Source of the DNA: a bacterium
GTDB lineage: Bacteria; Electryoneota; JAOADG01
Direction of reading: 5' to 3'
NCBI GenBank assembly: GCA_963681965.1
Contig: OY820579.1
Span: 1,504,001 to 1,568,000, forward strand
DNA length: 64,000 bases
Below are positions 13,331 to 30,803 of the stretch, piece by piece; position 1 is the stretch's first letter; each line of letters opens with the position of its first letter. The position numbers were made by a program, and so were the translations under genes. Below the pieces are notes generated by a model, which searched no databases, had not been told where the DNA came from, and was given only the letters and a program-made list of their open reading frames with translations.

Positions 13331-16300
13331 TTGTGCCGGGGGGGAGAGCTAGTGAAATCGTTGAATACGGAATCCATTCGGTTCGGTCACCCGATGTTCG
13401 ATCCCAACGAAATGGATACATTTGCCGATTTATTACCCCAACCGGTTTTTGAGACCGACCGTTCCGGTCGTCTACGATATGCCAATCGCGCTGCGATGAA
13501 TTGTTTCGATTTTCCCGTCGAACAATTGAACAATGGATTATCCGTTCTCGAAGTTATCAGCGAAACCGATCGCGATCGTGCATCGCAAGTTTTCCAGAAA
13601 TTGGTTGACGGCAAAATATCGCGAATCGATTCAGAATTTACGGTTCGAAATTTTCGCGGTGTTACATTTCCGATCGTTGCGATTTTATCTTCAGTTATCG
13701 TAAATAATGAAACGATTGGTGTTCGCGGTGTTCTAATCGAATTTTCAAAAACGGGTCATTCCAATCAGTTGTACACTCAATCCGATGATCGATACCGGTC
13801 ATTGTATGCGAATCTCGCGATCGGAACGATTTACCATACCGAAAAAGGCTTAATTGATGCAGCCAATCCAGCTGCTGCGGCGATATTGGGTACAACCGTA
13901 AACGAATTGATCGGTCGATCCAGTTTCGATTCCCGAACATCGATTTACAGTGAAGTCGGAGCGACGATTGGTTCCGATGAGTTTCCTTCAACTGTAGCGT
14001 TAACGACCGGAAAATTAACCGAACGTATCTGCGGAGTTCGGCTCCCGAGTTCAACTCACACCCGCTGGTACAAAGTAACTGCGATACCGCAATTACGGTT
14101 TTCCGAAGAGCGTGCCTATCAAGTCGTTACAAGTTTCGAAGATATTACCGCGCGCAAGAAATTAAGTGAAGCCGTAGCTGCAATTCTGGGAAAAGAAAGC
14201 GATCCATCCGGAATCGAATATCTTCGATTTCTAGCCCAAGAACTTGCGATAATTCTCGAAACGAAATACGCTTTCATTGGTGAATTGACGACTACTGTAC
14301 CTGGTCGATTTTCAACAGTTGGAATTTGGTCGGATGATCGCTTTGCCGAAGATGAAGAATTTTCACTGAAGAATACGATTGTCGAAACGGCAATTAAAAA
14401 GAAATTGTTTTATCAGAATAAAATCAACGCTCAAGATTTCCCGAAAGATAAATTCTTAAAACAGTTTAATGCCACTGATTTTTGCAGCCAAATTCTAACC
14501 GGTCATAATCACATTCCGATTGGTCTAATTGCGGTATTGAACGATCGACCGATCGCTGAAATTGAAATTGCAAAAAGCATTATGGCGCTGTTTGCGTTAC
14601 GAATTTCTTCTGAGATCGAACGACGACGTATCGATGAAGAACTTCAAAACGCCAATTATAAGTTTAAGACCCTGCTCAGCGAGATGACTGAAGGGGTAGC
14701 ATTTCACGAAGTAATTTACGATTCCAGCGGAAAACCAATCAATTATCGCGTCATCGAAGTAAACACAGCGTTTTTGAATATCCTCGGGTTTCAGCGCGAC
14801 AAAGTCATTGGAAAATTGGCTACGGAAATATTCGGTGTCGATTATCCGCCGTATTTAAAAGAATATTCTGCGACTGCTGTATCGCGCGTACCGTACCGCT
14901 TTGAAATTTATTTTGAACCGCTTCGAAAGCACTTTGATATCAATGTTGTATCGATTCAAAAAGGGTTCTTCACCACCATCTTTACCGATATCACCGATCG
15001 AAAGGCAACCGAATCGGAACTTCAAAAAAATACCGAGTATTACACCTTTTTGACTGACAGTATCAACGATATCGTTGCGCAAGTCGATCGCGATCTGGTC
15101 TATACTTTTTTAAGTCGGTCTTTACTGATGATATTGGGGTTTGACAATAAATCACTAATCGGACAAAGTTTTACTGCCAACATCCATCCCGAGGACCGTC
15201 CTCGGATCGAATCGACCATCCGGACATGTGCTCTAGCCAAAGCCACTCGACTTACATTGGAATACCGGCACTTTACTGTCGACGGTGATTTGAAATGGAT
15301 TGAGAGTACTACCAGAGTTCTTTACGATTCCAACAATGAATTTGACGGCTGCGTTCTGAGTTCTCGCGATATCACTGATCGTAAGCGCGCACAGCAAGCT
15401 TTGAAAATGTCGGAATCGCAATTCCGGGCACTGGCGGAAGGCGCAAAAGACGCAATATTTATTAAAGACTCGAATCTTCGATATGTTTTCGTTAATCCGG
15501 TAATGGCTAGTCTACTCGGACTTGCAGTTGAAAATATGATCGGAAAAACCGATCACGAACTGCTCGGAGAACGCTCGAATTCCTATGAAATTGCCGATCA
15601 AGAAGTATTGCTTGGGAAAACCGTAGAAACCGAGCCGACCGAGCGGATTCATGGCGTGTGGAAAACGATGCACACGATCAAGGTTCCGCTCCGAACTTCG
15701 CAAGGCGAAATTATCGGTATCTGTGGTATTGCCCGCGATGTCACCGAGCGCAATCAATCGGAATTGGCTTTGCGAGAAAGCGAAGAGCGCTATCGATTAT
15801 TAGTCGATTCACTGCCCGTTGGAATCGTTGCGCATTGCGAAGGAAAGATTGTTTTCGTCAATCAAACCGTCGTTAAAATGATCGGTGTCGAATCGGTTTT
15901 GGACTTGTTGGGTAAGAGTGCGATCGAATTTGTGCATCCCGAAGATCGACAGCGTGTTGCTACGCGAATGCGAGCTGTAATAGAAAATCGCGAAATGCAG
16001 CCATCGATAGAAGAACGATTTGTCCGATCCGACGGTTCGTTATTCGAGGCTGAGGTCACCTCTGTTCCATTCATGTATCACAATAAACCAGCAGCACAAA
16101 TTGTGTTGGTCGATATCTCGGAACGCAAACGTGCCGAAGATGAACGACGCAAGCTTGAATCGCAAATTCAGCATACTCAGAAATTGGAAAGTTTGGGAGT
16201 ATTAGCTGGAGGAATTGCCCACGACTTTAACAATCTGTTAGTCGGAATTCTCGGTAATGCCGGTTTGGCATTAATGGAACTGCCCACTGACTCGCCTACG

Positions 16301-17311
16301 CGGAAATCGATCGAATCGATTGAAACAGCCGCCATTCGCGCATCTGAACTAACAAAGCAAATGTTGGCATACTCCGGTAAGGGTAAGTTCTTAATCAATC
16401 AATTAAATCTATCGAAAGTTGTCGAAGAGATTTCGCATTTATTGGAAGTGTCGATCTCGAAACGAGTCGTATTGTCGTATCATTTCGCCGATAATTTGCC
16501 GAATATCGAGGGGGATGTTACACAAATTCGTCAGGTTGTAATGAATCTGATTACCAATGCTTCCGAGGCGATCGGCGATCGGAATGGAATGGTATCAATT
16601 ACGACCGGTAGTTTTTATGCGGATCGTGGGTACTTCGAGAATTCGTATGTCAGCGAGAACATGACCGAGGGTCATTACATCTTTATCGAAGTGAAAGATA
16701 CCGGGTCAGGAATGGACGAAGAGACCCTGAAGCGAATCTTCGATCCCTTTTTTACCACGAAATTTACCGGTCGAGGGTTGGGTCTTGCAGCCGTGATTGG
16801 AATCGTTCGCGGTCACCACGGTACGATAAAAGTCACTAGCGAACTAGGCGTGGGAACTACGTTTCGCGTGCTATTTCCGGTATCGAATGAAGAGTTAAAA
16901 TCGGAAAGTACTCAGTCGTCTACGAACCATCCGGAATGGAAATCGACTGGATCCGTTTTGGTGGTTGACGATGAACCAAGTGTCTTAGTATTGGCAAAGC
17001 AATTATTCGAGATGAAGGGATTTACCGTTATCACAGCTAGTGACGGATTAGAGGCAATTTCGCAATTCCGACAATTCATCGATCAAATACAATTTGTTTT
17101 ACTCGATTTAACCCTGCCAAAAATGAGTGGCGAAGAAGTATTCCGGGAAATTCGTCAACTCAAACCGGATGCCCGAATAATTCTTTCCAGCGGATACAAC
17201 GAACAAGAAGTAACTAGTCTGTTTGAAGGAAAAGGGATTGCCGGCTTTATTCAAAAACCGTACCGGATTCAGGAATTGTTGGATAAAATTCGCGAAATCT
17301 TAGAACAATAA
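13331..17311 (+). CDS. Cytoplasmic multi-PAS/GAF hybrid sensor histidine kinase with C-terminal receiver domain
   Basis: Several PAS/PAC repeats ('DITDRK'); H-box 'AGGIAHDFNNLL'; 'NLITNASEA', 'DTGSGM', 'FTTKFTGRGLGL'; REC 'VLVVDDE...LLDLTLP'; exact start uncertain. Confidence 0.93.
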   Translation: MCRGGELVKSLNTESIRFGHPMFDPNEMDTFADLLPQPVFETDRSGRLRYANRAAMNCFDFPVEQLNNGLSVLEVISETDRDRASQVFQKLVDGKISRIDSEFTVRNFRGVTFPIVAILSSVIVNNETIGVRGVLIEFSKTGHSNQLYTQSDDRYRSLYANLAIGTIYHTEKGLIDAANPAAAAILGTTVNELIGRSSFDSRTSIYSEVGATIGSDEFPSTVALTTGKLTERICGVRLPSSTHTRWYKVTAIPQLRFSEERAYQVVTSFEDITARKKLSEAVAAILGKESDPSGIEYLRFLAQELAIILETKYAFIGELTTTVPGRFSTVGIWSDDRFAEDEEFSLKNTIVETAIKKKLFYQNKINAQDFPKDKFLKQFNATDFCSQILTGHNHIPIGLIAVLNDRPIAEIEIAKSIMALFALRISSEIERRRIDEELQNANYKFKTLLSEMTEGVAFHEVIYDSSGKPINYRVIEVNTAFLNILGFQRDKVIGKLATEIFGVDYPPYLKEYSATAVSRVPYRFEIYFEPLRKHFDINVVSIQKGFFTTIFTDITDRKATESELQKNTEYYTFLTDSINDIVAQVDRDLVYTFLSRSLLMILGFDNKSLIGQSFTANIHPEDRPRIESTIRTCALAKATRLTLEYRHFTVDGDLKWIESTTRVLYDSNNEFDGCVLSSRDITDRKRAQQALKMSESQFRALAEGAKDAIFIKDSNLRYVFVNPVMASLLGLAVENMIGKTDHELLGERSNSYEIADQEVLLGKTVETEPTERIHGVWKTMHTIKVPLRTSQGEIIGICGIARDVTERNQSELALRESEERYRLLVDSLPVGIVAHCEGKIVFVNQTVVKMIGVESVLDLLGKSAIEFVHPEDRQRVATRMRAVIENREMQPSIEERFVRSDGSLFEAEVTSVPFMYHNKPAAQIVLVDISERKRAEDERRKLESQIQHTQKLESLGVLAGGIAHDFNNLLVGILGNAGLALMELPTDSPTRKSIESIETAAIRASELTKQMLAYSGKGKFLINQLNLSKVVEEISHLLEVSISKRVVLSYHFADNLPNIEGDVTQIRQVVMNLITNASEAIGDRNGMVSITTGSFYADRGYFENSYVSENMTEGHYIFIEVKDTGSGMDEETLKRIFDPFFTTKFTGRGLGLAAVIGIVRGHHGTIKVTSELGVGTTFRVLFPVSNEELKSESTQSSTNHPEWKSTGSVLVVDDEPSVLVLAKQLFEMKGFTVITASDGLEAISQFRQFIDQIQFVLLDLTLPKMSGEEVFREIRQLKPDARIILSSGYNEQEVTSLFEGKGIAGFIQKPYRIQELLDKIREILEQ

Positions 17312-17331: not shown

Positions 17332-18822
17332 CTAGTCCATTTTACGATAATTCACTCCTAATCGGTCAAGCAGAGGAAGATGTCTCACTAGACGTCGCTT
17401 GAAATCACCGAATTCCCGATTGGATTCCTGACTCCACAATACTTCCGACATCGCACACACGCGCGGAAATAGCATATATTCGACTTGTCGCCAATCAGGC
17501 ATGTACTCAGTCCATAGATTTCCCTGACCACCTAGGATATGTTTTCGGTCGATATCTGATAACTCCGCTGGAACCGGTTCGAATGCATATACTTGTTCCA
17601 ATGGTAAATCGTTCGGAAATGCTTTCGGTTCTGTTTCACGGTTTCCTTGATAGTAGTCGAAATAGCAGTGTCGAGTTGGCGACATTACGACATCGTGTCC
17701 CATAGTTGCCGCAGCAATTCCCCCTTCGAAACCACGCCACGACATCACTGCGGCTTGAGTAGCTAATCCCCCTTCGAGAATTTCATCCCAACCAATTGCC
17801 CTTTTTCCGCGTTGCGACAAAAAGGCTGCGATCCGTTTAACGAAATAACTCTGTAGTTCATATTCGTTTGCTAGTTTCTCTGATTTGATGCGATGCTGGC
17901 AGAGTGGACACTCTCGCCACCGGGTTTTCGGACATTCATCGCCGCCGATATGAATAAATTCATTCGGAAACAGATCGATCACTTCGTCCAACAGCCGTTC
18001 GAGAAAAGTGAAGGTATGATCATTACCAGCACAATATACATTATCGAAGATACCCCACTCGGTTGCAACTGAAATTGTCGATCCGGTACAAGAATACTCC
18101 GGGTATGCCGCTAGTGAAGAGGTTGCATGACCGGGCATCTCAATCTCGGGAACGATTTCGATGAATCGCGAAGTGGCAAATTGCACAATCTCTTTGATAT
18201 CGGACTGCGAATAGTAACCCCCGTATCGCGATCCATTAGCTTCAATTCGCCAGGCTCCGATCTCAGTTAATTTTGGGAATACCCGGCTCTCGATTCGCCA
18301 TCCTTGGTCGTCACAGAGGTGCCAATGAAATCGATTGAATTTGTATCGCGCTAGATGATCGATGAATCGTTTAATGTCGTCGACTGGGAAGAAATGTCGG
18401 GAAACATCGAGATGCATCCCGCGCCATGAAAATCGTGGTGAATCGACGATGCAACATCCTGCAATAGAAATTGAATCGTGGTGAATGGGTGAATTCGAAA
18501 TCAATTGAAGAAGCGATTGAATTCCGTGAAAGATACCGATCTGATCGTTGGCTCGTATGTTAATATTCAGATCACTGATTTCGAGGTGATAACCTTCCCA
18601 GTCAATTTCCGGAGATTGATCAATAATTTCCAACAAAATATCGTTGGAATTTGTATCGCCAATCGAAGCGATCGGCAAAGTGAGTTGCGTTTCGGTCGCA
18701 AGCTTCTCTTGCAGATACTTGGCTAGATGTCGTATCGAAGATTGAGTGGTGATTTGGCACGCAGAATTTAGAGAGTAACTACAATTGCGTGTTTCATAAT
18801 GTTGAGGTTTTGGAATAATCAT
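17332..18822 (-). CDS. Beta-N-acetylhexosaminidase, GH20
   Basis: 'PRFSWRGMHLDVSRHF', 'HWHLCDDQGWR', 'HIGGDE'; likely start at 18822 just after the upstream stop; no signal peptide. Confidence 0.93.
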   Translation of the reverse strand: MIIPKPQHYETRNCSYSLNSACQITTQSSIRHLAKYLQEKLATETQLTLPIASIGDTNSNDILLEIIDQSPEIDWEGYHLEISDLNINIRANDQIGIFHGIQSLLQLISNSPIHHDSISIAGCCIVDSPRFSWRGMHLDVSRHFFPVDDIKRFIDHLARYKFNRFHWHLCDDQGWRIESRVFPKLTEIGAWRIEANGSRYGGYYSQSDIKEIVQFATSRFIEIVPEIEMPGHATSSLAAYPEYSCTGSTISVATEWGIFDNVYCAGNDHTFTFLERLLDEVIDLFPNEFIHIGGDECPKTRWRECPLCQHRIKSEKLANEYELQSYFVKRIAAFLSQRGKRAIGWDEILEGGLATQAAVMSWRGFEGGIAAATMGHDVVMSPTRHCYFDYYQGNRETEPKAFPNDLPLEQVYAFEPVPAELSDIDRKHILGGQGNLWTEYMPDWRQVEYMLFPRVCAMSEVLWSQESNREFGDFKRRLVRHLPLLDRLGVNYRKMD

Positions 18823-18826
18823 CTCA

Positions 18827-19855
18827 TCACCTATTCTGCCAGAGATTCGGGATTTTATCCCATCCCACGAGATATGCGGAAACTCGCCAGTAACCAAAGT
18901 CCCCTTTTTCGTTTTTGGGACGCATTCTTTCAATTGCGAATTTAATTGAGTGTTTTCCGGTGGTAAGAGCATCGGAAAGATCGATTTCATAAGGCTTCAC
19001 TTCGCAACCGGGACACCATCCACTGCGGCTATAGTCGGATGACCAACTCCCATCTGCCCAGTGTGAAGTATATGGATTGCGTTCGCGATATTGTCGGCAA
19101 TCGTCCCGCCAGGGATAAAACCGCTCGACGACGTTTCCATCGACCCGAATCACATTCGCTTTCGATACAAATTCATCTTCATTGGTTCCATCGGTACAGT
19201 GACCGGTGGTAAAATAAATCATCGCAACACGTTTCAATCCATCCGGTATCGAGATCTCGGTTTCAGCACCATTAGGTTGATCTTGTTGATTAAAGGAATC
19301 ATTATAATAGACCGGAGTTGCCCAAGTGGCATTGTCGTAGTCGCGTGATGTCTCGTAGCGTAACGAGAAGCTAACGATCCATCCCGGAGAAGTCCAGGTA
19401 TCGATAAATGTGCGAAAAGTTTGTTCGCCTTGTAATAACGGTGCAATATAACTAACATCGGTTTCATGTTCAGTTCGTCCGCCATACGATGTCATGAAAC
19501 GCATGATTTCTAGATCGGGCTTCCCCTCGATTGCCAACCGGATATTTCCCGCGCGGTCCCATCGATCGAACACCGTTCGCTCGTCTTTGTAGATCGGTTG
19601 AAGGATCACATGCGCAAAGATTCGAACCGATGAATCGGGGGAAGGTAGCTTCGATTTGGTTGATAAGATCCGCCCGTTATCACTTGCGATCAGACCTTTC
19701 TCCGCATATTTGGATGCGGAATCGGGTTGGAAATGAAGAGTGACAGTTTGAAAGATCGGAATCGTTATCGTATCGGGATTGGAAACGGCAGAACAGACGC
19801 CAGCGAGGAACAACAAGAGAATGGTCAAATTGAATCGACCGAAATTCCTTAACAT
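18827..19855 (-). CDS. Peptide-N-glycosidase F-related secreted protein
   Basis: 'DRWDRAGNI', 'EIMRFMTSYG', 'TTGH', 'DEF', 'WRDDC', 'SRSGWCPG' PNGase F-type motifs; GAGGTG RBS; signal peptide. Confidence 0.8.
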   Translation of the reverse strand: MLRNFGRFNLTILLLFLAGVCSAVSNPDTITIPIFQTVTLHFQPDSASKYAEKGLIASDNGRILSTKSKLPSPDSSVRIFAHVILQPIYKDERTVFDRWDRAGNIRLAIEGKPDLEIMRFMTSYGGRTEHETDVSYIAPLLQGEQTFRTFIDTWTSPGWIVSFSLRYETSRDYDNATWATPVYYNDSFNQQDQPNGAETEISIPDGLKRVAMIYFTTGHCTDGTNEDEFVSKANVIRVDGNVVERFYPWRDDCRQYRERNPYTSHWADGSWSSDYSRSGWCPGCEVKPYEIDLSDALTTGKHSIKFAIERMRPKNEKGDFGYWRVSAYLVGWDKIPNLWQNR

Positions 19856-20008
19856 AATCACCTCAGTGAATTCAATTTGAATCCAATTCAATTCTTGAGT
19901 GAAGTTGCACTTCGCTAAAAGTAAGCTCCCGTCTAATTTATTCCAACAATGATCTTTCAAATATGGATTTCACTGAAAATTTCTTCAATTTGCTCTTCAG
20001 CATGATAT

Positions 20009-21696: not shown

Positions 21697-21972
21697 ATGG
21701 CAATGAACTTAACGACTCGCGCACTCTATTTCCGTGATGGAAAAAATGTGATTGTGCTATCTCCGGAATTGGGTGTTACTTCTTGGGGCACTTCAGTCGA
21801 TGATGCGACCCGCAATTTAAAAGAAGCGGTGAAACTATACTGCGAGACGGCTCGCGATCAGAATGAACTGGAAGATGTATTGGAAGAGGCAGGGTATCAA
21901 CATGAAGGAACGATGTGGGTACCACCAGCGCTCGTCGATCAACAGGACGTGGAAGTAGAGATCAATGAGTAG
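21697..21972 (+). CDS. hicB: HicB-family antitoxin (short, no DNA-binding domain)
   Basis: 'SPELGVTSWGTSVDDATRNLKEAVKLY' partial RNase-H-fold motif. Confidence 0.75.
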   Translation: MAMNLTTRALYFRDGKNVIVLSPELGVTSWGTSVDDATRNLKEAVKLYCETARDQNELEDVLEEAGYQHEGTMWVPPALVDQQDVEVEINE

Positions 21973-22303
21973 CAAAACGATACCGGCAAAATTCGTGCTT
22001 CGCGCATTGGAAATGGATGGCTACCTTCCGAAGCGGGGTGAAGGAAATCATGTGATCTATGCCGGACGGCATGGCGGAAATCTAATCGTGTTACGCAATA
22101 CGGGAGATACGCCTACGATTCAGATTCGCTGGATCCTCGAAACGGCGGGTATTCCGCGGGCACGTTTTCTGGCAAATGTCGCAAAGGCTAAACAGGAACC
22201 ACGTCGACGCTATACCTTGTTGGGAACGATTTTTGCCAAACCGGCAGAAACGCTTGAGAAGAAACAGGAACCGGAAATTCCGATTCCGCCGCGAAAAAAA
22301 TAG
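21965..22303 (+). CDS. hicA: HicA-like toxin with C-terminal extension
   Basis: 'VLRALEMDGY..KRGEGNHVIY...IRWILETAGI' resembles the HicA dsRBD fold with G-x-H; overlaps hicB. Confidence 0.6.
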   Translation: MSSKTIPAKFVLRALEMDGYLPKRGEGNHVIYAGRHGGNLIVLRNTGDTPTIQIRWILETAGIPRARFLANVAKAKQEPRRRYTLLGTIFAKPAETLEKKQEPEIPIPPRKK

Positions 22304-22321: not shown

Positions 22322-22356
22322 GAAAACCGGCAACCCTCTCGGATTGCCGGTTTTTC
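22322..22356. terminator. Bidirectional intrinsic terminator
   Basis: GAAAACCGGCAACC-CTCTC-GGATTGCCGGTTTTTC between convergent hicA and the oxidoreductase gene. Confidence 0.85.
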
Positions 22357-22395: not shown

Positions 22396-23847
22396 TTAGC
22401 TTACCGGGATCATCCTAGTCACAATTTCAACACCCATCTGCGTTAAGAAATCATTCGGCGACTCGCCACCGAGTAGTAAGAACGAATAGTCGTTTGGCAC
22501 CGATTTTTCGCTCCCGTCTTTCAACTTCAAGACGACATCTTTCTCATTTATCCGAATCACATTCGATTCGAAATAAGAGATAATTCGTTTCTCACTGATT
22601 GCGCGGTCGATTGCCTCACGGTTCCGTGGCATGATCCGGTCGAATTTGTTGCGACGATAGCTGATTGATACCCGATTCGATTTCTGATTTGCCAGTCCAA
22701 CTGCCGCTTCGACAGCGCTATCGCCACCTCCCACGATCAAAACATCGCAGTTTGTGTAGTCATTGGCATCGTAAAGCTGGTAAGTCACTTTCGCTAAATC
22801 TTCGCCCGGTACATCCAACTTCCGCGGAGTTCCGCGACGCCCGATTGCGAGGATCACGCGTTGACTGATCAGGTTTCCGTGATTGGTTTTCACTGCGAAA
22901 GTGCCGTCCGATTGTTTCATGACGCCTTCGCAACGGGTGTGTTCGCGGACTTCTATTCCGGTGTTCGCGACGATTGTTTGCCAGACTGTTAGCAACCCCT
23001 CTTTCGAGCTGTCCTGAACCCAGAGATTACCATAGAGTGGAATGTCAATCGGTTCCGCCATCACGAATTTATTTCGGGGATACTTCCGAATGGTCGATGC
23101 GAGTTCTTCGGCTTCGATCGTGATTGTATTGAAATTGTATTTTTTTGCTGAGAGCGCTGCCGACAGACCCGCCGGACCAGCGCCAACGACGATGATATCG
23201 GCGATTCCTTCGCGCGGACGAAGGTTGCTGCGAATGCGTTCGACTACGTTTCGTCCTTCATTCACAGCATGCTTGATCAGTGCCATCCCACCTAATTCAC
23301 CAACGATATAGAGACCTTCAACATTAGTTTCGTAATTTTCTTTTACAAATGGTACTTGAATTTTTCGACCACTACCTACTCGAACAAGGACTAACGCACC
23401 CGTCGGACAGACGGTGCCGCATTTGCCGGCACTCGTACAGAGATCGGCATCCGGTAGCACTGCTTTGTGATTAACCAAAGCCAAGGCATTTTCCGGACAG
23501 ACCGAAACACAAGTACCGCAGCCAATACAACTGGAGATATCAATCGCTGGTTTTAGCGGAGCCGACTCATCTTCCGGAGCATTCGGATCGACAATCGGTG
23601 CTCGCTTCAGATCGTACATTGCGAGTGGAGTACCGCACTTGGGACAAAAGATCGTTCCTTTCGGAATCGGTGTTGAACACTGTGCACACGGAATCGAGGG
23701 CAAAGCCGTCTTCATTCCGGTGACAGTCGCCGATTTACCGCTGTTGGTGGGTGCTTTCGCAGCTTGGTCCCGCAATTTCTTTAAGTGAAGATGAATCGGG
23801 ATTGCCATCAACATCAAGGCAAATACAAAAAATATCAAAGTTTCCAT
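22396..23847 (-). CDS. Membrane-anchored FAD/NAD(P)H oxidoreductase (TrxR/YpdA-like fold) with Zn-ribbon and ferredoxin domain
   Basis: Start METLIFF (AAGGA RBS); TM helix; CAQC..CPKC; CIGCGTCVSVCP and CTSAGKCGTVCP; 'VVGAGPAGLSAA'; 'VGGGDSAVEAA', 'SYRR'. Confidence 0.85.
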   Translation of the reverse strand: METLIFFVFALMLMAIPIHLHLKKLRDQAAKAPTNSGKSATVTGMKTALPSIPCAQCSTPIPKGTIFCPKCGTPLAMYDLKRAPIVDPNAPEDESAPLKPAIDISSCIGCGTCVSVCPENALALVNHKAVLPDADLCTSAGKCGTVCPTGALVLVRVGSGRKIQVPFVKENYETNVEGLYIVGELGGMALIKHAVNEGRNVVERIRSNLRPREGIADIIVVGAGPAGLSAALSAKKYNFNTITIEAEELASTIRKYPRNKFVMAEPIDIPLYGNLWVQDSSKEGLLTVWQTIVANTGIEVREHTRCEGVMKQSDGTFAVKTNHGNLISQRVILAIGRRGTPRKLDVPGEDLAKVTYQLYDANDYTNCDVLIVGGGDSAVEAAVGLANQKSNRVSISYRRNKFDRIMPRNREAIDRAISEKRIISYFESNVIRINEKDVVLKLKDGSEKSVPNDYSFLLLGGESPNDFLTQMGVEIVTRMIPVS

Positions 23848-23872
23848 CGGTACAATCCTTGAGCAAGATCGA

Positions 23873-24799
23873 CTAGAAGATCCAGCGATAACCCAGCAAG
23901 ACAACGACAATTACATGAACCATCAATGTGCCATACATCAGGAATGTGAGTGGTTTGTGGAACACATGCCACCAATCGAATAGTGCATGTGCCGCACCTA
24001 GTAATTGAATTTTACGCATCAGTAGCGATTTCCGTCGAGCGAGAAGTACAATTTCATCGACTTTCGCTCGATCCATATTTTCTTTTTGTAAAGTATGGCG
24101 CAATTCGCGAATCTGTCGGAACCGGCTGAGATCGTCTCGCATCATAAACTTCAATGCACCCAGGGCACCGGTATCTGCAATATTTTCGTCGACCGACGAT
24201 ATTTTATCGATGTGTTCGAATACTGGATGCGTTAATCCAAGTTCTTTACGCAATGCACCGACCAATCGGCGGTCTTCAGTTTCCAGCTCTTGCATCGATA
24301 ATTCGGTACCAGCGAGTGTTTTTGGAATTTGACTATACAACCATCGACCGATGATGCCTGATAAAACTACTCCGACCATTGCCCAAAAGCTCAACGCGGG
24401 AAGCTGTGAATCAAGTTTTCCAGTGGAATGGTACAAAACAAACATCGGACCGCATAATCCCATCGTAATATGAAGCTGTAACCAAACTCGCAACGATCCC
24501 CAATTCCGCATGAATTTCAACCGTTTCCGCGCAACATAAATATAAATCGAGAGCATCATCAGTGTCCCGATAACACCGAGTGTATGTCCGATCGAACCGC
24601 GTGAACTCCACTGCGCGTGCATCGGATGAAACATCCGTCCGGGAGCGTCGGGTGTGTCGAAGATTGGAGTTAAATAATATGCCTTACCCTTCAACGCGAG
24701 GATGACGAAGAACAATGTCATCACCACAGTTAGGATGTAAGGTAAAACTTTCACGAATGTGACTGCTCGAGGGGCAGTGTCGGTTCTTGGATTTGCCAT
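23873..24799 (-). CDS. Ferric-reductase/NOX-like transmembrane di-heme cytochrome b
   Basis: Several TM helices; two H-x13-H pairs: LHITMGLCGPMFVLYH and FHKPLTFLMYGTLMVH. Confidence 0.7.
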   Translation of the reverse strand: MANPRTDTAPRAVTFVKVLPYILTVVMTLFFVILALKGKAYYLTPIFDTPDAPGRMFHPMHAQWSSRGSIGHTLGVIGTLMMLSIYIYVARKRLKFMRNWGSLRVWLQLHITMGLCGPMFVLYHSTGKLDSQLPALSFWAMVGVVLSGIIGRWLYSQIPKTLAGTELSMQELETEDRRLVGALRKELGLTHPVFEHIDKISSVDENIADTGALGALKFMMRDDLSRFRQIRELRHTLQKENMDRAKVDEIVLLARRKSLLMRKIQLLGAAHALFDWWHVFHKPLTFLMYGTLMVHVIVVVLLGYRWIF

Positions 24800-24889
24800 A
24801 GATTGAATATAAGGTATCTAGTTGAAAGAGTTCAGTAAATTTCTTCGAGTTGACTGATTTCTTGAACTATCTCCTGAGATAATAATAAA

Positions 24890-26176
24890 TTACTTCTTGT
24901 GACTAGGAATCCGATATCCGAGATCGAACAATATGACTTTGTCTTGTTGAGAATTGGCAGTTGTCAATTCCCCGGTAACTCCTGCGCTCCAATCGTTCAA
25001 CCAATACCACAATGATAGCTCCCATCGGTTGGAGTCATAGCGGCTCTCACCACCACCAAATCCGCTTTTGTACTCGTTACGTTCAATATAATATCCGAGT
25101 CGTGGTGATAAACCTGCCAACAACTCTTTCTCGAGTGAGATTGAATAACTGGAACCGCGATAATAGAGGTTGTTATTGAATCCAGCATCAATGAAGGTAT
25201 ACAACGGTTTAATCTGCTTTGTATTGGCAGTCAGACCTAGTCCATAAGATGTACCGTTGTCGTTGTTTTTTTCGCGTCGTTGGAAGCGGACATTACTATG
25301 CCAGTCGATTTGCGGGATCATCCGATAATTGATGCCCGCGGAATAATCGTAGACCGGTTCCGATTCGAATAACGTATCGGCGATGTCTCGCATCGATCTG
25401 AGTAATTTGAAACCGCGCCGAAATCCGACCGATTGTTGAAATCGCCACTTCTGACCGGAAGATTCGCTGGCGTTAATCTGGAAATTGGAAATGCGAATAC
25501 CCGACTTGTCGGAATTGTTATCGCGATAGGCAAAGTCGAGTTCCAGCGTTTGATAGAGGTAGCTTCGGGCAAATGGCGTGAAGGATAGATTTTGTGTTAA
25601 CAATCTGCGATCCAGTTTTCCCTGACACTGTTGTTCTAATATCGAAACACCCCAACTGTGTGAATAATCGATCGCGTGTCCACTTACCGCAACACCAAAT
25701 TTGCTGATATCTTTTCCTAAGCCGAAAGTGTTTAAGTCTGGTTCATTGCCACCATACACCGAAAGTTCAAGTTTCGGTTCCGGCGAATAAATGATCCGAC
25801 CGCCATCGAGAAACCCGATCCCACCGAATCCCCTGCTACCCAATCGACCGGCTTGGACATCCCATTTCGGTGAGAGTCGCCACCCGAGCCATGCTTCGTA
25901 TACTCGCGATTGTTCGATTTTCGTTGAAACATCATGGCGGATTCGCGCATCGAGTGCGCCATGGATCGATTCTGTGAACAAATGATCGACATTAACAAAT
26001 CCGCGAAACGATGGCTCGACGCGTTTTTCACCGATGTCCGGGTACAATGAGTAAACACCGACTCCGAACCGACCGGAAAATTGCGGTGGAGTCTGACTAA
26101 AGCAAAACTGCACTAGTGCGATGATAGCTAAAACAACAGTGATTAATCGATTCACTTTCCGAGCTTGGAGGATCAT
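24890..26176 (-). CDS. Putative outer-membrane beta-barrel protein (porin partner of the multiheme cytochrome)
   Basis: Signal peptide; alternating hydrophobic/aromatic strands throughout; last strand 'ILFDLGYRI'; ATGA overlap with the cytochrome stop. Confidence 0.65.
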   Translation of the reverse strand: MILQARKVNRLITVVLAIIALVQFCFSQTPPQFSGRFGVGVYSLYPDIGEKRVEPSFRGFVNVDHLFTESIHGALDARIRHDVSTKIEQSRVYEAWLGWRLSPKWDVQAGRLGSRGFGGIGFLDGGRIIYSPEPKLELSVYGGNEPDLNTFGLGKDISKFGVAVSGHAIDYSHSWGVSILEQQCQGKLDRRLLTQNLSFTPFARSYLYQTLELDFAYRDNNSDKSGIRISNFQINASESSGQKWRFQQSVGFRRGFKLLRSMRDIADTLFESEPVYDYSAGINYRMIPQIDWHSNVRFQRREKNNDNGTSYGLGLTANTKQIKPLYTFIDAGFNNNLYYRGSSYSISLEKELLAGLSPRLGYYIERNEYKSGFGGGESRYDSNRWELSLWYWLNDWSAGVTGELTTANSQQDKVILFDLGYRIPSHKK

Positions 26177-29100
26177 TTATTGGTTCCTCCAGTTGGAAGT
26201 TTAGGAGCTGTAGGCGATATTCCGCGCTGTGGGAGTAATCGTCCTCCACCACCACCCCTACCGTGACAAGCAGTAGTAATGCATGAATTGCTGTTGCAGA
26301 TAAATCCGGAAACTCCGTTGTGTTGGTTCTGTAGCCGGGTACATCCGTTATGGCATGTGATGCAATCGAGTTGGATATAAGTGGCAGTGTTCGGATGACA
26401 TCGGTCGCAGGATACATTGTGATCGCCGGTTAAAATAAACCAACTGTGGCTTGAGAGACGTCCTTGTTGCCAAGTCGTGTTCGACACTCCATGGCAGGGA
26501 CTGCAATTGATTCCGAAGACTGTTGGTGAAGCGGTATGATTCGCCGGATAAACCGGTTGCTGGCAATAATTCGAAGAACTTGAACTGTGACAATAGCGAC
26601 AATCCGTCGTCGCCCCGGTGATTGTTCGATTTTGGTGACAGTTTACACACGTTTGTTGGGCATGAATACCTTGCCCGAAAACACCGTCGTTGGTGTGAGT
26701 CCAGCCGTGAGTAGGTGTCCAACCATTGGTTGCGGCAGGATCATGGCAATTACCGCAATTATCGCCAATCTGTCTACGCCACAGATCGTCCTGACTTCGA
26801 GTCCAATGACACGTGAAGCAGTCGGTCGGGGTATTGGAATACTGATTGTTCACATGACATTGAACGCAAGTCGTAGTGCTGTGCCGACCATTCAAAGCAA
26901 ATACCGTGCTGTGATTAAAAGTTGCCGGTCGCCAAGCGTCCCTTCCGGGATGACAGGTTCCGCACTGAGAAGTCGGAAATATCGTCGGATTGGCGTGATG
27001 CGACGGATTGGATGTTGTGTCGTAAGCAGTAGTATGGCAGCGATAACAATCGGTCGGAGTATTCGAATAGGTTCCGTGATGACAGTCGTTGCAAGCTGCG
27101 GTAGCATGTCTTCCCGACAGTGGATAGACGGTTGTGTGGTTGAAATTCGCTTGCGTCCATTGTCCGCCGCTGGTATGACACGTTCCACACTGCGCGGTTG
27201 GAAAGATCGTCGGGTTGGCACTATGCGATGGATTCGACGTCGTATCGTATTCGGTAGTATGACAATGATAACAATTAGTCGGAGTATTCATATAGGTCCC
27301 GTGATGACACTCATTGCAGGTAGCGGTAGCGTGTCTTCCCGATAGTGGATAGACGGTTGTATGGTTGAAATTCGCTTGCGTCCATTGTCCACCACTGGTA
27401 TGACAGGTTCCGCACTGCGCGGTCGGAAATATCGTCGGGTTGGCACTATGCGATGGATTCGACGTCGTGTCGTACTCGGTTCGATGACAAGAGTAGCACA
27501 CCTGCGAAGTAGTATTATAGTTTCCGTGATGACAATCGTTACAACTTGCCGTGGCGTGTCTGCCTGTTAACGGATACACCGCAGTATGATTGAAATTCGC
27601 CTGCGACCATTGTCCACCACTGGTATGACACGTTCCGCACTGAGATGTCGGATAAACCGTCTGATTGGTACGATGTGTTGGATTAGAGGTTGTATCGTAT
27701 TCGGTTGTATGACAAGTGTAGCAATCGGATGAAGTTCCTGAATACCGCGTGGTGTGGCAACTATTGCATGCCGTCGGTTGCGGAGATGCATGACGACCGC
27801 TTAATGGAAATAAAGTGTGAGCGTAATTCGCTGCAAACCAAGTTTGATCGGCGTCGCTATGGCAGGTTGCACATTGAGTGTTGAAGCCAGCTAACTGATG
27901 GTTTGGATTTGCTGAGCTATTGTAGACAGTCTGATGGCACCCTACGCAATTCGTTTTACGCGAATCAGAAGCTGGCGTTCGAGTCGTATGGCAATCGATA
28001 CACAATTTTTGAGCATGCTTCCCTTGAAGTTGGTAATGTGCAACAGTGTTGTGGTCAAATTGCACATTTTGAGTCCAACCGCCGGTGTTGTGACATGTTC
28101 CGCAATTGGTACCGTTCGCCAATCGCCAGAGGTCGGATTGCGTTCTGGTCCAATGACAGGTATAGCAGTCGGTGGGGGTTCCGGCATACTGATTGTTCAA
28201 ATGGCACTGAGTGCAAGTAACCTGAGTTGCGTGCCGTCCGGTAAGTGGAAAGTTGGTGTGAGTGAATGTGGTTTGCTCCCAACTGGACGCCGATTGTTGA
28301 TGACAGGTTGTGCAATCGCGGGGATATGTTAGATGAGCAGGATGTTCCGCACCGGCGCGAGTGAAATCGGAGGAATGACACCCGTTACATTCTCTTGTCG
28401 TTCCGCTATAATGTCCGTTGACATGGCATTGTGTACAAGAAGTATAGGCAAGACTATGTTTTCCGACCAACGCATATGAAGTGTGGGAAAAATTCTGTGC
28501 ACGCCAGTCTGGACCGCCATTACGATGACATTGTACACACTCTGTTTTCGCGAATCCGGCAGCAGCATGATTCGGATCCGTCATCCGATCGTATTCTTTC
28601 TGGTGGCAACTGTAGCATTCGGTGGATGCATCGGCAAATCGCTGGGTCTTGTGGCACTCAGTGCAATTTGTGGTCTGATGCTTATTCTGCAGCGGAAAAT
28701 TCGTTCGTGTATGAGAGAATTGCAGGTCATTCCATCGCGAGGGTCGATGGCAATCGGTACAGGTTTGCGATAAATACCCTTGATGCACATCGGTATGACA
28801 ACGATTGCATTCCATCGGTATTCCGGCATATTTCCCGGAACTATGGCACTGTTTGCAATCTACTGACTGATGTGTCCCTTCCAGTGGAAAACGGGTCAAG
28901 CGATGATTGAAAACTATGCCACTCTTCCAACCCATCGGAGAGTGACATTGTTCGCAATTCTTCCCGAAAGTACCATTGTGGTGATCGTTTTTCGCGTGGC
29001 AATTGTTACAACTTAATTCACTGGCAGCGAATTTGAATTTGCCATCCTTGTGGCATTCGGTACAATTTGTCGTTGCATGTTTCCCGATCAAAGCAAATTG

Positions 29101-30471
29101 TGTGGTTGCGTGTTGTGTTACACCGAAATTGGATGGTTTCCAGCTTTGATTGGAATGACATTGAGTACACTGCGAACTTAGTTGTCCCTTGTGCTGGTCT
29201 TTATGGCATCCCAGGCATTCACGTTGCTGTGCGGTAAACGCAAACCGGTTGTCTTTATGGCAATCGTTACAGGCGAGGGTTGCATGTTTCCCGGCTAATC
29301 GAAAATGCGACGTGTCATGCTGCGTTTGGGTAAATGTCGAGGGTTTGAAGTGATCGACCGTATGACAAATCTGGCAATTCGTCGATAATTGACCTTTGTG
29401 TTGATCTTGATGACAACTGTTGCACTTCTTTTGATCGGATGTGAATTTGAATCGGTTTTCCTTATGACATTTATTGCACGCTTGATCCAGATGTTTTCCT
29501 GCCAGTTGAAAACCGGTCTGATTGTGTTTAACGGTAGTATAAAGCGATGGAATAAATTTTGTCTCGTTGTGACACGTCTTGCAGTCGTTGCCGAGCTGTC
29601 CTTGGTGACGGTCGGTATGACAAGCCACGCAGGAACGCTGATTGAGAACTGGTTTTAGTTTTGGATTATGACAGGCATCGCAACGTAGTAGCGCGTGTGC
29701 TTCATTTAACGTAAAACCGGTTTTTGTGTGATCGAAACCGGCTAACTTATTCCATCCACCGGGAGAGTGGCATTCAGTGCAATTTTGGTTGAATTTTCCT
29801 TTATGTGGATCGTTGTGACAAGACCGGCAGTCCTTGGATAGCGAATTCCACTTGTTTTCCTTATGGCATTGCGCGCAGGCAACTTCAACATGTTTTCCTG
29901 TTAATTTCCAGGAAGTCTTACTGTGATCAAATTGTGGCGCCGGAGTCTTCCAACCGAGATTGGAGTGACAATCGAGACATCCTCGTTTTAAATCAGAACC
30001 ATGTTGATCCTTATGACAACTCAGACATTCGGATTTTAAACCGGAATAGCTGTCTTTTTTCTTATGACATTCGGTACAATTCAGGGTTTGATGTTTTCCG
30101 TCTAATTTCCATCCGGTTTCTTCATGTTTAAATGCTTTGGGGTCCCATCGAATTAACCGTCCACTTACACCGATGTGTTCTTTATGACATGTTGCGCAAT
30201 TGCGCGATTGTTTGGCGTGGTATCCACGATTCTTGTCGATACTGGTTCGAATCCCATCATGGCAAGCAAGACAAAGATTCGTCGATATTCCTTGTTTCCC
30301 GGACCCTTCATGACATGCGACGCAATTATTGGAACCCTCCAGCGAGGAGTGAACTTTGGTCAACGGTCCCGGAGAAATAACACTGGCTACGCTGAGTTTT
30401 ATTGCTACTGCAGATAGCAGCAGTATAGCATAAAACAAGTATACCTTGGATCGGTGGAACGGAGGTTTCAT
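26173..30471 (-). CDS. Giant multiheme cytochrome c (56 CxxCH + 1 CX4CH)
   Basis: Hand count of heme motifs; signal peptide followed by 'ISPGPLTKVH'; repeated F-x-H...L-x-G-[KR]-H...CxxCH x3 modules. Confidence 0.95.
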   Translation of the reverse strand: MKPPFHRSKVYLFYAILLLSAVAIKLSVASVISPGPLTKVHSSLEGSNNCVACHEGSGKQGISTNLCLACHDGIRTSIDKNRGYHAKQSRNCATCHKEHIGVSGRLIRWDPKAFKHEETGWKLDGKHQTLNCTECHKKKDSYSGLKSECLSCHKDQHGSDLKRGCLDCHSNLGWKTPAPQFDHSKTSWKLTGKHVEVACAQCHKENKWNSLSKDCRSCHNDPHKGKFNQNCTECHSPGGWNKLAGFDHTKTGFTLNEAHALLRCDACHNPKLKPVLNQRSCVACHTDRHQGQLGNDCKTCHNETKFIPSLYTTVKHNQTGFQLAGKHLDQACNKCHKENRFKFTSDQKKCNSCHQDQHKGQLSTNCQICHTVDHFKPSTFTQTQHDTSHFRLAGKHATLACNDCHKDNRFAFTAQQRECLGCHKDQHKGQLSSQCTQCHSNQSWKPSNFGVTQHATTQFALIGKHATTNCTECHKDGKFKFAASELSCNNCHAKNDHHNGTFGKNCEQCHSPMGWKSGIVFNHRLTRFPLEGTHQSVDCKQCHSSGKYAGIPMECNRCHTDVHQGYLSQTCTDCHRPSRWNDLQFSHTRTNFPLQNKHQTTNCTECHKTQRFADASTECYSCHQKEYDRMTDPNHAAAGFAKTECVQCHRNGGPDWRAQNFSHTSYALVGKHSLAYTSCTQCHVNGHYSGTTRECNGCHSSDFTRAGAEHPAHLTYPRDCTTCHQQSASSWEQTTFTHTNFPLTGRHATQVTCTQCHLNNQYAGTPTDCYTCHWTRTQSDLWRLANGTNCGTCHNTGGWTQNVQFDHNTVAHYQLQGKHAQKLCIDCHTTRTPASDSRKTNCVGCHQTVYNSSANPNHQLAGFNTQCATCHSDADQTWFAANYAHTLFPLSGRHASPQPTACNSCHTTRYSGTSSDCYTCHTTEYDTTSNPTHRTNQTVYPTSQCGTCHTSGGQWSQANFNHTAVYPLTGRHATASCNDCHHGNYNTTSQVCYSCHRTEYDTTSNPSHSANPTIFPTAQCGTCHTSGGQWTQANFNHTTVYPLSGRHATATCNECHHGTYMNTPTNCYHCHTTEYDTTSNPSHSANPTIFPTAQCGTCHTSGGQWTQANFNHTTVYPLSGRHATAACNDCHHGTYSNTPTDCYRCHTTAYDTTSNPSHHANPTIFPTSQCGTCHPGRDAWRPATFNHSTVFALNGRHSTTTCVQCHVNNQYSNTPTDCFTCHWTRSQDDLWRRQIGDNCGNCHDPAATNGWTPTHGWTHTNDGVFGQGIHAQQTCVNCHQNRTITGATTDCRYCHSSSSSNYCQQPVYPANHTASPTVFGINCSPCHGVSNTTWQQGRLSSHSWFILTGDHNVSCDRCHPNTATYIQLDCITCHNGCTRLQNQHNGVSGFICNSNSCITTACHGRGGGGGRLLPQRGISPTAPKLPTGGTNK
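26940..27730 (-). repeat. Intragenic 225-bp (75-aa, tri-heme) tandem repeat, about 3.5 copies
   Basis: TGAAATTCGC anchor at 27141, 27366 and 27591 (period 225); near-identical peptides 'YDTTSNPSH.ANPTIFPT.QCGTCHTSGGQWTQANFNH'. Confidence 0.9.
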
Positions 30472-30803
30472 ATAACACCACGAGCTGATACTGGATTTAG
30501 GGATTTAAATGAATGATTATCGTACAAGTAACGAAAAGATCTTCCACTCTGCAACGATTTATGTGATGATTTTGAAATAGAATTCATATCATTTAACCGT
30601 GAATTCTACAAAACACATGTTAACAAGGTCGTCACTCGTTTTCCGATAGTAAAGAAGATTGAAAACTGTTACTTTGAATTTGGATTCGTAAAATGCGTGT
30701 TATTAATTGTTGATGTTTGTCACTTCAGAATGATGAAGAAATATATTGTATATATGTAATTAATTATTCAAAGTATAAATGAATATTTGATAGGGAACTG
30801 ATT

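Follow-up and report, generated by a model that had tools for sequence, protein, structure and literature searches.

A conserved four-gene cluster with a 57-heme cytochrome and a ferredoxin-flavoprotein, a candidate compact form of the PCC3-type electron conduit

Here we describe a cluster of four genes in a 64,000-nucleotide stretch of bacterial DNA (GenBank assembly GCA_963681965.1, contig OY820579.1, positions 1,504,001 to 1,568,000; lineage Electryoneota), the whole of which is called the window below. The genes lie co-oriented on the minus strand at window positions 22396-30471, separated by short gaps only, and encode a 57-heme c-type cytochrome, a probable outer-membrane beta-barrel, a membrane protein predicted to hold two b hemes and a flavoprotein with a ferredoxin domain. 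An earlier reading of the same DNA, made without database searches (the sequence-only reading), had presented them as a candidate conduit between NAD(P)H and the cell surface. Its coordinates and strand for the cluster were correct, and so were its heme count for the cytochrome, its two H-x13-H pairs in the membrane protein and its description of a membrane-anchored FAD/NAD(P)H flavoprotein with Fe-S motifs.

The four genes and their products

The cytochrome gene (26173..30471, minus strand) encodes 1432 residues beginning with a Sec-type signal or anchor. The protein carries 56 CxxCH motifs and one CxxxxCH motif, which corresponds to 25.1 residues per heme. It matched Pfam Cytochrome_C7 with an E-value of 1.2e-69 over 12 stretches; further domain matches were to Cytochrom_CIII, Cytochrom_c3_2 and MtrC/MtrF II-IV, and the nanowire_3heme model TIGR04257 scored 50.8 bits (cut-off 40). 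The chain is made up of two modules. The N-terminal module (residues 1-495; 28987..30471) has 20 hemes and is rich in Lys, and the C-terminal module (residues 496-1432; 26176..28986) has 37 heme motifs and is rich in Thr; at the joint the composition switches from 10.5% Lys and 7.3% Thr to 1.5% Lys and 15% Thr. Separate 20-heme cytochromes of ~540 residues, encoded in related loci, align end to end with residues ~10-495 of the window protein, and exactly 20 CxxCH motifs were found in 61 of 68 homologues of this module. In addition, the 22-heme proteins of two further loci (L008 and L011) align to residues ~493-1027. The window cytochrome is a fusion of two cytochromes, one with 20 hemes and one large, that are separate in related loci, and this natural fusion argues that the “periplasmic” and “extracellular” cytochromes form one continuous wire. 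Within the C-terminal module there are four 75-residue repeats with three hemes per unit, seen at the DNA level as a tandem 225-nucleotide repeat (26950..27716, minus strand; 3.4 copies, 81% matches). A congeneric species has the same four genes and 57 hemes, and in a species of the same family a single cytochrome chain holds 60; heme number may therefore change through gain and loss of repeats.

The start of the second gene (24890..26176, minus strand) overlaps the cytochrome stop codon by four bases (26173-26176). Its product is a secreted protein of 428 residues with a signal peptide, belonging to a family of 110 representative clusters, mostly of 520-560 residues, in which no transmembrane-like stretch is present. 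The window protein is a short form of this ~540-residue family and is without its N-terminal domain of ~100 residues, the region within which FlgT_C was matched in 10 of 50 family members. Neither Pfam nor NCBIfam gave a match for the 428-residue protein, and a PDB sequence profile search of the family returned nothing meaningful. The nearest named clusters in a protein language model were outer-membrane barrels (0.92, all ten agreeing). Furthermore, family-averaged windows with the two-residue periodicity of amphipathic beta strands made up 26% of the barrel family and 10-11% of two control families, and 28 of 50 family members end in Phe. Thus the sequence-only reading, which had called this protein beta-barrel-like and noted the overlap, is right about the overlap and gains support for the barrel-like character from the beta pattern, the terminal Phe and the language-model clusters; the fold itself stays a prediction, and we regard the protein as likely to be an outer-membrane beta-barrel and the porin of the conduit.

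The third gene (23873..24799, minus strand) encodes a membrane protein of 308 residues with five hydrophobic segments, the latter averaged over an alignment of 66 relatives from which conservation was also read. Two histidine pairs, H110/H124 and H281/H295, are each spaced 13 residues apart; H110, H124 and H295 are kept in all 66 sequences and H281, together with H278, in 65. Each pair forms part of a Wx3Hx13H motif (W106-H110-H124 on the third segment, W277-H281-H295 on the fifth). S147, G148 and G151, which make up an SGxxG motif on the fourth segment, are invariant, and an RKR sequence after the second segment is conserved as well. The protein ends five residues after the fifth segment. Lys and Arg are abundant in the loop after segment 2 (residues 91-103) and in that after segment 4 (residues 156-278, a helical insert of ~120 residues), so both loops should be cytoplasmic, which would in turn place H110/H281 near the inner face of the membrane and H124/H295 near the outer face. 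The window protein has no Pfam or NCBIfam match above cut-off, and PDB sequence profiles returned only coiled-coil noise on the cytoplasmic insert (E > 1). When each of the 66 members was scanned alone against Pfam at E <= 10, weak matches appeared to DUF4405 (PF14358) in 57, to Ferric_reduct (PF01794) in 29 and to Ni_hydr_CYTB in 26, all of which point to two-heme b cytochromes. The best member reached an E-value of 5.9e-5 for DUF4405, with the window protein not among the matching members, and 0.0016 for Ferric_reduct, for which the window protein itself gave 8.4 (6.9 bits; cut-off 28). No longer version of the membrane protein with a fused domain turned up when such forms were searched for, which is weak evidence. 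We predict from these features that it is a two-heme b cytochrome of the ferric-reductase/DUF4405 kind.

The last gene of the cluster encodes the flavoprotein (22396..23847, minus strand; open reading frame to 23910). The TTG at 23910 is probably only the start chosen by the reading-frame caller; relatives begin at a Met that corresponds to 23847, and a start there gives a protein of 483 residues and a gap of 25 nucleotides after the membrane-protein stop. From its N-terminus the protein comprises a hydrophobic helix, a zinc ribbon found in the window's branch of the family, a ferredoxin domain with two Fe-S motifs, of which CxxCxxCxxxCP is complete, and an FAD/NAD(P)H domain. The latter matched Pyr_redox_3 (E 2.7e-42), and its GxGxxG and GGGDSA motifs are invariant among relatives. 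Its closest solved relatives are the NADPH-dependent YpdA/Bdr proteins (E 1.3e-50), followed by thioredoxin reductases (TrxR) and TrxR-type ferredoxin-NADP reductases; the fold match covers residues ~217-478. The last FAD-binding strand of YpdA (residues 275-293) aligns with flavoprotein residues 167-185, ahead of the Rossmann start, which indicates that the YpdA-type flavin domain may be circularly permuted, with the moved strand lying beside the ferredoxin domain. In YpdA, the active residue is the Cys of the GGGPCG motif. In the flavoprotein the motif reads GAGPAG, with Ala in place of the Cys found in the solved YpdA chains 7a7b and 7a76, and because this Cys is absent we rejected a role as bacillithiol-disulfide reductase; the YpdA model TIGR04018 scored 174.6 bits, under its cut-off of 339.9. 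Lys or Arg follows the anchor helix in all flavoprotein sequences listed in the alignment and no twin-arginine motif was seen in the window protein, on which grounds we place the cofactor domains in the cytoplasm, presumably at the inner face of the membrane.

Co-occurrence of the four families across genomes

In a search that took one genome from each species, at least 587 loci encoded the membrane protein, and the best 80 of these were analysed by scanning with family profiles within 12 kb of the membrane-protein gene. These 80 loci came from Ignavibacteriota, Bacteroidota, Calditrichota, Zixibacteria, KSB1, Marinimicrobia, Acidobacteriota and other lineages. Of these, 70 had the flavoprotein, 74 a cytochrome of at least 10 hemes and 47 the barrel family, and the full set of four was likewise present in 47, the misses falling in loci truncated at contig ends. 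Where at least 9 kb was available on both sides (30 loci), the flavoprotein and the cytochrome of at least 10 hemes were found in every case and the barrel family in 28. Gene order varies between lineages while the gene set stays: the membrane-protein and flavoprotein genes are adjacent on the same strand in 32 loci, have one small gene between them in 14, are divergent neighbours in 2 and lie more than 1 kb apart in 22, with 10 of the 80 loci having no flavoprotein. Within the window's phylum, the membrane protein was found in 21 of 41 genomes (16 of 35 genera), and exactly these 21 genomes, but no other, had the flavoprotein (E <= 1e-60); a strong barrel match was obtained in 19 of the 21 genomes and in one of the 20 others. 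The 41 genomes are kin and therefore do not count as 41 independent trials. Taken together, these results, which answer the synteny check proposed with the sequence-only reading, demonstrate that the four families are a conserved unit.

The loci differ in several other respects. In 14 of the 80, which are of the Ignavibacteria type (for example L056:10865-11473), the genes for the membrane protein and the flavoprotein flank one for a TPR protein of ~200 residues. This TPR protein, which the window does not encode, matched CcmH/CycH-TPR weakly (34.5 bits; under the cut-off, 42). In another locus (L061:8675-9937), the gene immediately upstream of that for the membrane protein encodes glutamyl-tRNA reductase, which catalyses the first step of heme synthesis. 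One genome (G004) has a lone membrane-protein gene between genes for an aminotransferase and an isopropylmalate/isocitrate dehydrogenase (L093, G004:C1, 8500-9420), with the flavoprotein and barrel genes on contig C22. In the class of locus L022 and genome G041 (labelled Ectothiorhodospiraceae), the membrane-protein family was found in 115 of 401 genomes, most with E below 1e-80; this points either to a family common in that class or to a label at odds with the classification.

A second cytochrome-barrel cluster lies outside the window in the same genome (G000:C1:3909714-3917238; L107:714-8238). It encodes a CbcL-like protein of 870 residues with 19 CxxCH motifs and a C-terminal Ni_hydr_CYTB domain (47.1 bits, cut-off 30.1), a protein of 419 residues that is matched by the barrel-family profile (E 1.8e-12), proteins with 9, 5 and 4 hemes, and ResB. 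Pairwise BLAST of the 428- and 419-residue proteins was weak (E 0.015), so that only the family profile links the two. As this second cluster carries a quinol-type cytochrome b domain, the organism seems to have two kinds of entry, of which one is quinone-linked. For cytochrome maturation, a check that the sequence-only reading had also suggested, the genome has a CcsA-type gene and ResB.

Comparison with known electron-transfer systems

The closest published description that we found is that of porin-cytochrome c complex 3 (PCC3), predicted in neutrophilic Fe(II) oxidisers. According to the available text of He et al. 2017 (PMC5566968), it consists of a porin, an extracellular cytochrome with a median of 34 hemes and up to 85, a periplasmic cytochrome with a median of 21, and an inner-membrane protein of ~300 residues whose five helices carry SGxxG (helix 4) and Wx3Hx13H (helices 3 and 5). 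The same text describes the second cytochrome as repeat-rich, rich in Thr, Ser, Ala and Gly and with 22-39 residues per heme, and the extracellular cytochromes as Thr-rich and Lys-poor; up to 42 transmembrane regions were predicted for the porin (PMC5566968). In Gallionellaceae, PCC3 has since been counted with a periplasmic cytochrome of 21-27 hemes, a number held sufficient to bridge the periplasm (Hoover et al. 2023, PMC9900912). The part of a 2025 report available to us still calls the complex functionally unverified (10.1101/2025.02.27.639646).

We found that the window membrane protein agrees with this description in length, number of segments, SGxxG and both Wx3Hx13H motifs, that the 20-heme module of the fused chain corresponds to the ~21-heme periplasmic cytochrome, and that the C-terminal module, with its 37 heme motifs, 15% Thr and 75-residue repeats in a chain of 25.1 residues per heme, corresponds to the large one. 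A porin gene alongside would have its counterpart in the predicted barrel, which is without a family match. The differences are that the window cluster has a strictly co-occurring ferredoxin-flavoprotein gene, that its two cytochromes are one chain, that its barrel is small (428 residues, and ~540 in relatives, compared with up to 42 transmembrane regions) and that its hosts are genomes of the FCB group and allied metagenome-assembled genomes rather than Proteobacteria. The likeness is one of described features. Thus the earlier statement that no characterised system has this composition needs to be narrowed: three of the four parts belong to the published PCC3 prediction. No flavoprotein belonging to such a complex was found in the PCC3 texts consulted or in further literature searches; genes neighbouring the complex may be listed in Supplementary Tables 3-4 of He et al. 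Likewise, no description of the cluster was found in the accessible portions of papers on Caldithrix, Melioribacter, peat clusters, Effluviviacota and bioanode metagenome-assembled genomes. Flavoprotein co-occurrence, cytochrome fusion and a wide spread in the FCB group (at least 587 loci) go beyond the PCC3 texts consulted. On balance we favour the interpretation that the cluster is a compact, lineage-specific form of a PCC3-type conduit in which a cytoplasmic flavoprotein would be the inner end.

The conduits MtrCAB of Shewanella and OmaB-OmbB-OmcB and Ext of Geobacter follow the layout proposed for the cluster, in which multiheme cytochromes of the periplasm and of the cell exterior work with a barrel in the outer membrane. 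We rejected membership of the MtrCAB group, as the 428-residue protein has no MtrB/PioB model match and the cluster scores far below the cut-offs of the DmsE/MtrA model TIGR03508 (35.9 against 192.2 bits) and of TIGR03507 (16.2 against 209.3 bits). Heme numbers in the window cluster are moreover 2-5 times larger than in MtrCAB and the Geobacter conduits, which draw on the quinol oxidases CymA, ImcH and CbcL (PMC6295460). Pfam gave no CymA/NapC (NapC/NirT) or Ni_hydr_CYTB match above cut-off in any of the four window proteins.

In the NOX/FRE/STEAP proteins, and in MsrQ with Fre, a cytoplasmic NAD(P)H-flavin module feeds b hemes in the membrane. The cluster resembles them in its two predicted b hemes, held by histidines that are paired, at a spacing of 13 residues, on helices 3 and 5. 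It differs in that the membrane protein has five helices instead of six, plus the cytoplasmic insert of 120 residues, and in that the dehydrogenase is a separate chain of TrxR/YpdA fold with two Fe-S clusters, not a fused FNR-like domain. The sequence-only reading had proposed a split NOX/ferric-reductase-like module, and of this the membrane half stands on its His pairs and weak Ferric_reduct matches, whereas the dehydrogenase half does not belong to the NOX (FNR-like) family. The window flavoprotein in turn differs from YpdA/Bdr and TrxR-type ferredoxin-NADP reductases by its added anchor helix, zinc ribbon and ferredoxin domain. A further comparison is offered by cytochromes of the DUF4405, PepSY-like and MsrQ-like types, which have six helices and are tied to ApbE flavinylation on the outer face; a purified DUF4405 protein and FezC bind heme b, as reported in the part of Huang et al. 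2024 available to us (PMC11334425). The centrally placed His quartet of the DUF4405 type is also seen in the window membrane protein, whose partners, in contrast, would be a cytoplasmic Fe-S flavoprotein on the inside and a multiheme cytochrome on the outside. The Hmc and Tmc complexes of sulfate reducers link a cytoplasmic Fe-S protein, by way of a cytochrome b in the membrane, to a multiheme cytochrome in the periplasm, along a path that need not use free quinone, and are without an outer-membrane part or an NAD(P)H flavoprotein. By this general architecture, they share with the cluster, as proposed here, a path from cytoplasm to periplasm through Fe-S clusters, heme b and a multiheme cytochrome.

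Proposed electron path, rival explanations and surrounding features

The arrangement suggests the following path. NAD(P)H would exchange electrons with FAD in the YpdA/TrxR-fold domain, held at the inner membrane face by the N-terminal helix, and the electrons would travel by way of both Fe-S clusters in the fused ferredoxin domain to a cytoplasmic-side heme b (H110/H281) and on to a periplasmic-side heme b (H124/H295). From there they would enter the 20-heme, Lys-rich, c7-type module, which should be able to span the periplasm, and continue unbroken into the 37-heme, Thr-rich module, which would meet or pass the outer-membrane barrel and so, we infer, bring the cytochrome to the cell surface. 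Because charge crosses the membrane, such a wire could work in both directions. If electrons flowed outward, the cell would lose negative charge to a sink that conserves no energy; if they flowed inward, the membrane potential would assist them. That this is a quinone-independent, NOX-like wire, leading from NAD(P)H through FAD, two Fe-S clusters and two b hemes into a heme chain that reaches the surface, in at least 587 species-level genomes, is a proposal we make tentatively and hold with some doubt.

Several points weigh against the favoured interpretation. The contact between flavoprotein and membrane protein is something we infer, and a complex prediction of the two with two hemes and two Fe-S clusters scored 0.00 and gave no verdict. 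The choice of NAD(P)H as substrate follows from fold and motifs. In the second Fe-S motif, which reads CxxHxxCxxxCP in at least 90% of 51 relatives, the window protein has Ala for His (CxxAxxCxxxCP), and because of this replacement its second cluster may be 3Fe-4S or altered. A quinone site in the membrane protein is possible, and the published PCC3 model, as given in the available text, has quinone exchange (PMC5566968). In genome G004 the membrane-protein gene is on a different contig from the flavoprotein and barrel genes, and the more distant of the at least 587 loci, beyond the best 80, may have other contexts. On the outer side, the barrel fold is a prediction, with Pfam giving a weak OMP_b-brl match in just 2 of 50 family members, and a single 57-heme chain would somehow have to be placed across the outer membrane.

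The possible quinone site leads directly to one rival explanation, in which the cluster is a quinone-linked PCC3: as a hydrogenase or bc1 cytochrome b does, the membrane protein would pass electrons to or from the menaquinone pool, and the flavoprotein would be a side player such as a redox sensor, a second input or a protective reductase. He et al., who in the text available likened the PCC3 membrane protein to the NOX/FRE ferric-reductase domain, proposed a quinone link for the membrane proteins of PCC3 and PCC4 (PMC5566968), and the weak Ni_hydr_CYTB matches in 26 of 66 members and the separation of the genes in G004 fit such a role. However, the flavoprotein occurs in exactly the same 21 of 41 phylum genomes and in all 30 complete loci, often in a gene adjacent to that of the membrane protein, and a side role is hard to square with a strictly kept, membrane-anchored cytoplasmic partner. 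In the genome's other cluster, moreover, the expected quinol link takes the form of a recognisable Ni_hydr_CYTB fusion. We consider a quinone-linked complex unlikely.

We give still less weight to two explanations that concern the fate of the cytochrome. It is improbable, in our estimate, that the chain stays in the periplasm as a wire or electron store (capacitor) for soluble or periplasmic acceptors, with the 428-residue protein an outer-membrane protein of another role. The fused chain does have one signal peptide, no lipobox and no known surface-sorting tail that could be seen in its sequence, and both the barrel fold and its contact with the cytochrome are predictions; yet 28 of the 30 complete loci hold the barrel family together with a large cytochrome, a protein distantly related to that family by profile search (E 1.8e-12) is found in the genome's other cytochrome cluster, and 57 hemes are far above the 21-27 held to be enough for the periplasm (PMC9900912). 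The Thr-rich, Lys-poor make-up of the C-terminal module is also that of the extracellular PCC3 cytochromes as He et al. describe them in the available text. A helper role in maturation, in which the membrane protein and flavoprotein would supply reductant for handling heme or apocytochrome and not serve respiratory or uptake electron flow, could draw on the TPR protein with its weak CcmH/CycH-TPR match in Ignavibacteria-type loci and on the glutamyl-tRNA reductase gene of L061. Against this, the TPR gene is absent from the window and from many loci, ordinary CcsA and ResB genes are present elsewhere in the genome, and proteobacterial PCC3 is described with the membrane protein among its core parts; we regard such a role as very improbable.

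If the PCC3-type conduit with a flavoprotein at its inner end does bypass quinone, it would bear on an open point: PCC3 has been recognised in the genomes of iron oxidisers since 2017, and its membrane protein has only been guessed to be quinone-active. That the flavoprotein was never apart from the membrane protein in the phylum genomes searched gives a concrete biochemical hypothesis for this inner-membrane end. In many Ignavibacteriota, Bacteroidota, Calditrichota, Zixibacteria and allied lineages, extracellular electron transfer would then bypass the quinone pool, and models of their energy yield, of their redox balancing and of the part they play in iron and humic cycling would have to change. 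Running outward, the wire would provide a fermentation-type electron sink onto minerals, humics or partner cells. Running inward, it would let the membrane potential help extracellular electrons reduce NAD(P)+, which bears on the supply of reductant in iron oxidisers with PCC3.

At its 3' end the cluster is closed by a hairpin resembling an intrinsic terminator (22323..22354, minus strand), ~40 nucleotides past the flavoprotein stop and followed by UUUUCU. It has 14 pairs and a folding energy of -23.4 kcal/mol (z -6.3), and none of 200 shuffled sequences folded as well, bearing out the terminator proposed in the earlier reading; a simple terminator scan did not pick it up, and the total of that scan was at chance (9 found, 9.6 expected). 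On the 5' side of the cytochrome gene, an A+T-rich intergenic region (30472..30803) shared with a divergent gene is presumed to be the promoter region, with promoter-like matches in it at chance level (17 found, 14.7 expected). The genes that flank the cluster are unrelated to it and include GH20, PNGase F-like, DUF2238, a HicAB-like pair, 3HCDH, an ABC ATPase and a Kdo transferase. The HicAB-like pair consists of two small reading frames (21697-22303, plus strand) with weak HicB-like and HicA-like matches, below Pfam cut-offs, and converges on the cluster terminator. A hybrid sensor kinase of 1326 residues, with at least four PAS domains and a receiver domain, is encoded 5 kb from the cluster (13331-17311, plus strand). 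At 17332-19960 on the minus strand, the GH20 hexosaminidase gene adjoins the PNGase F-like gene, a pair that suggests use of glycans or glycoproteins.

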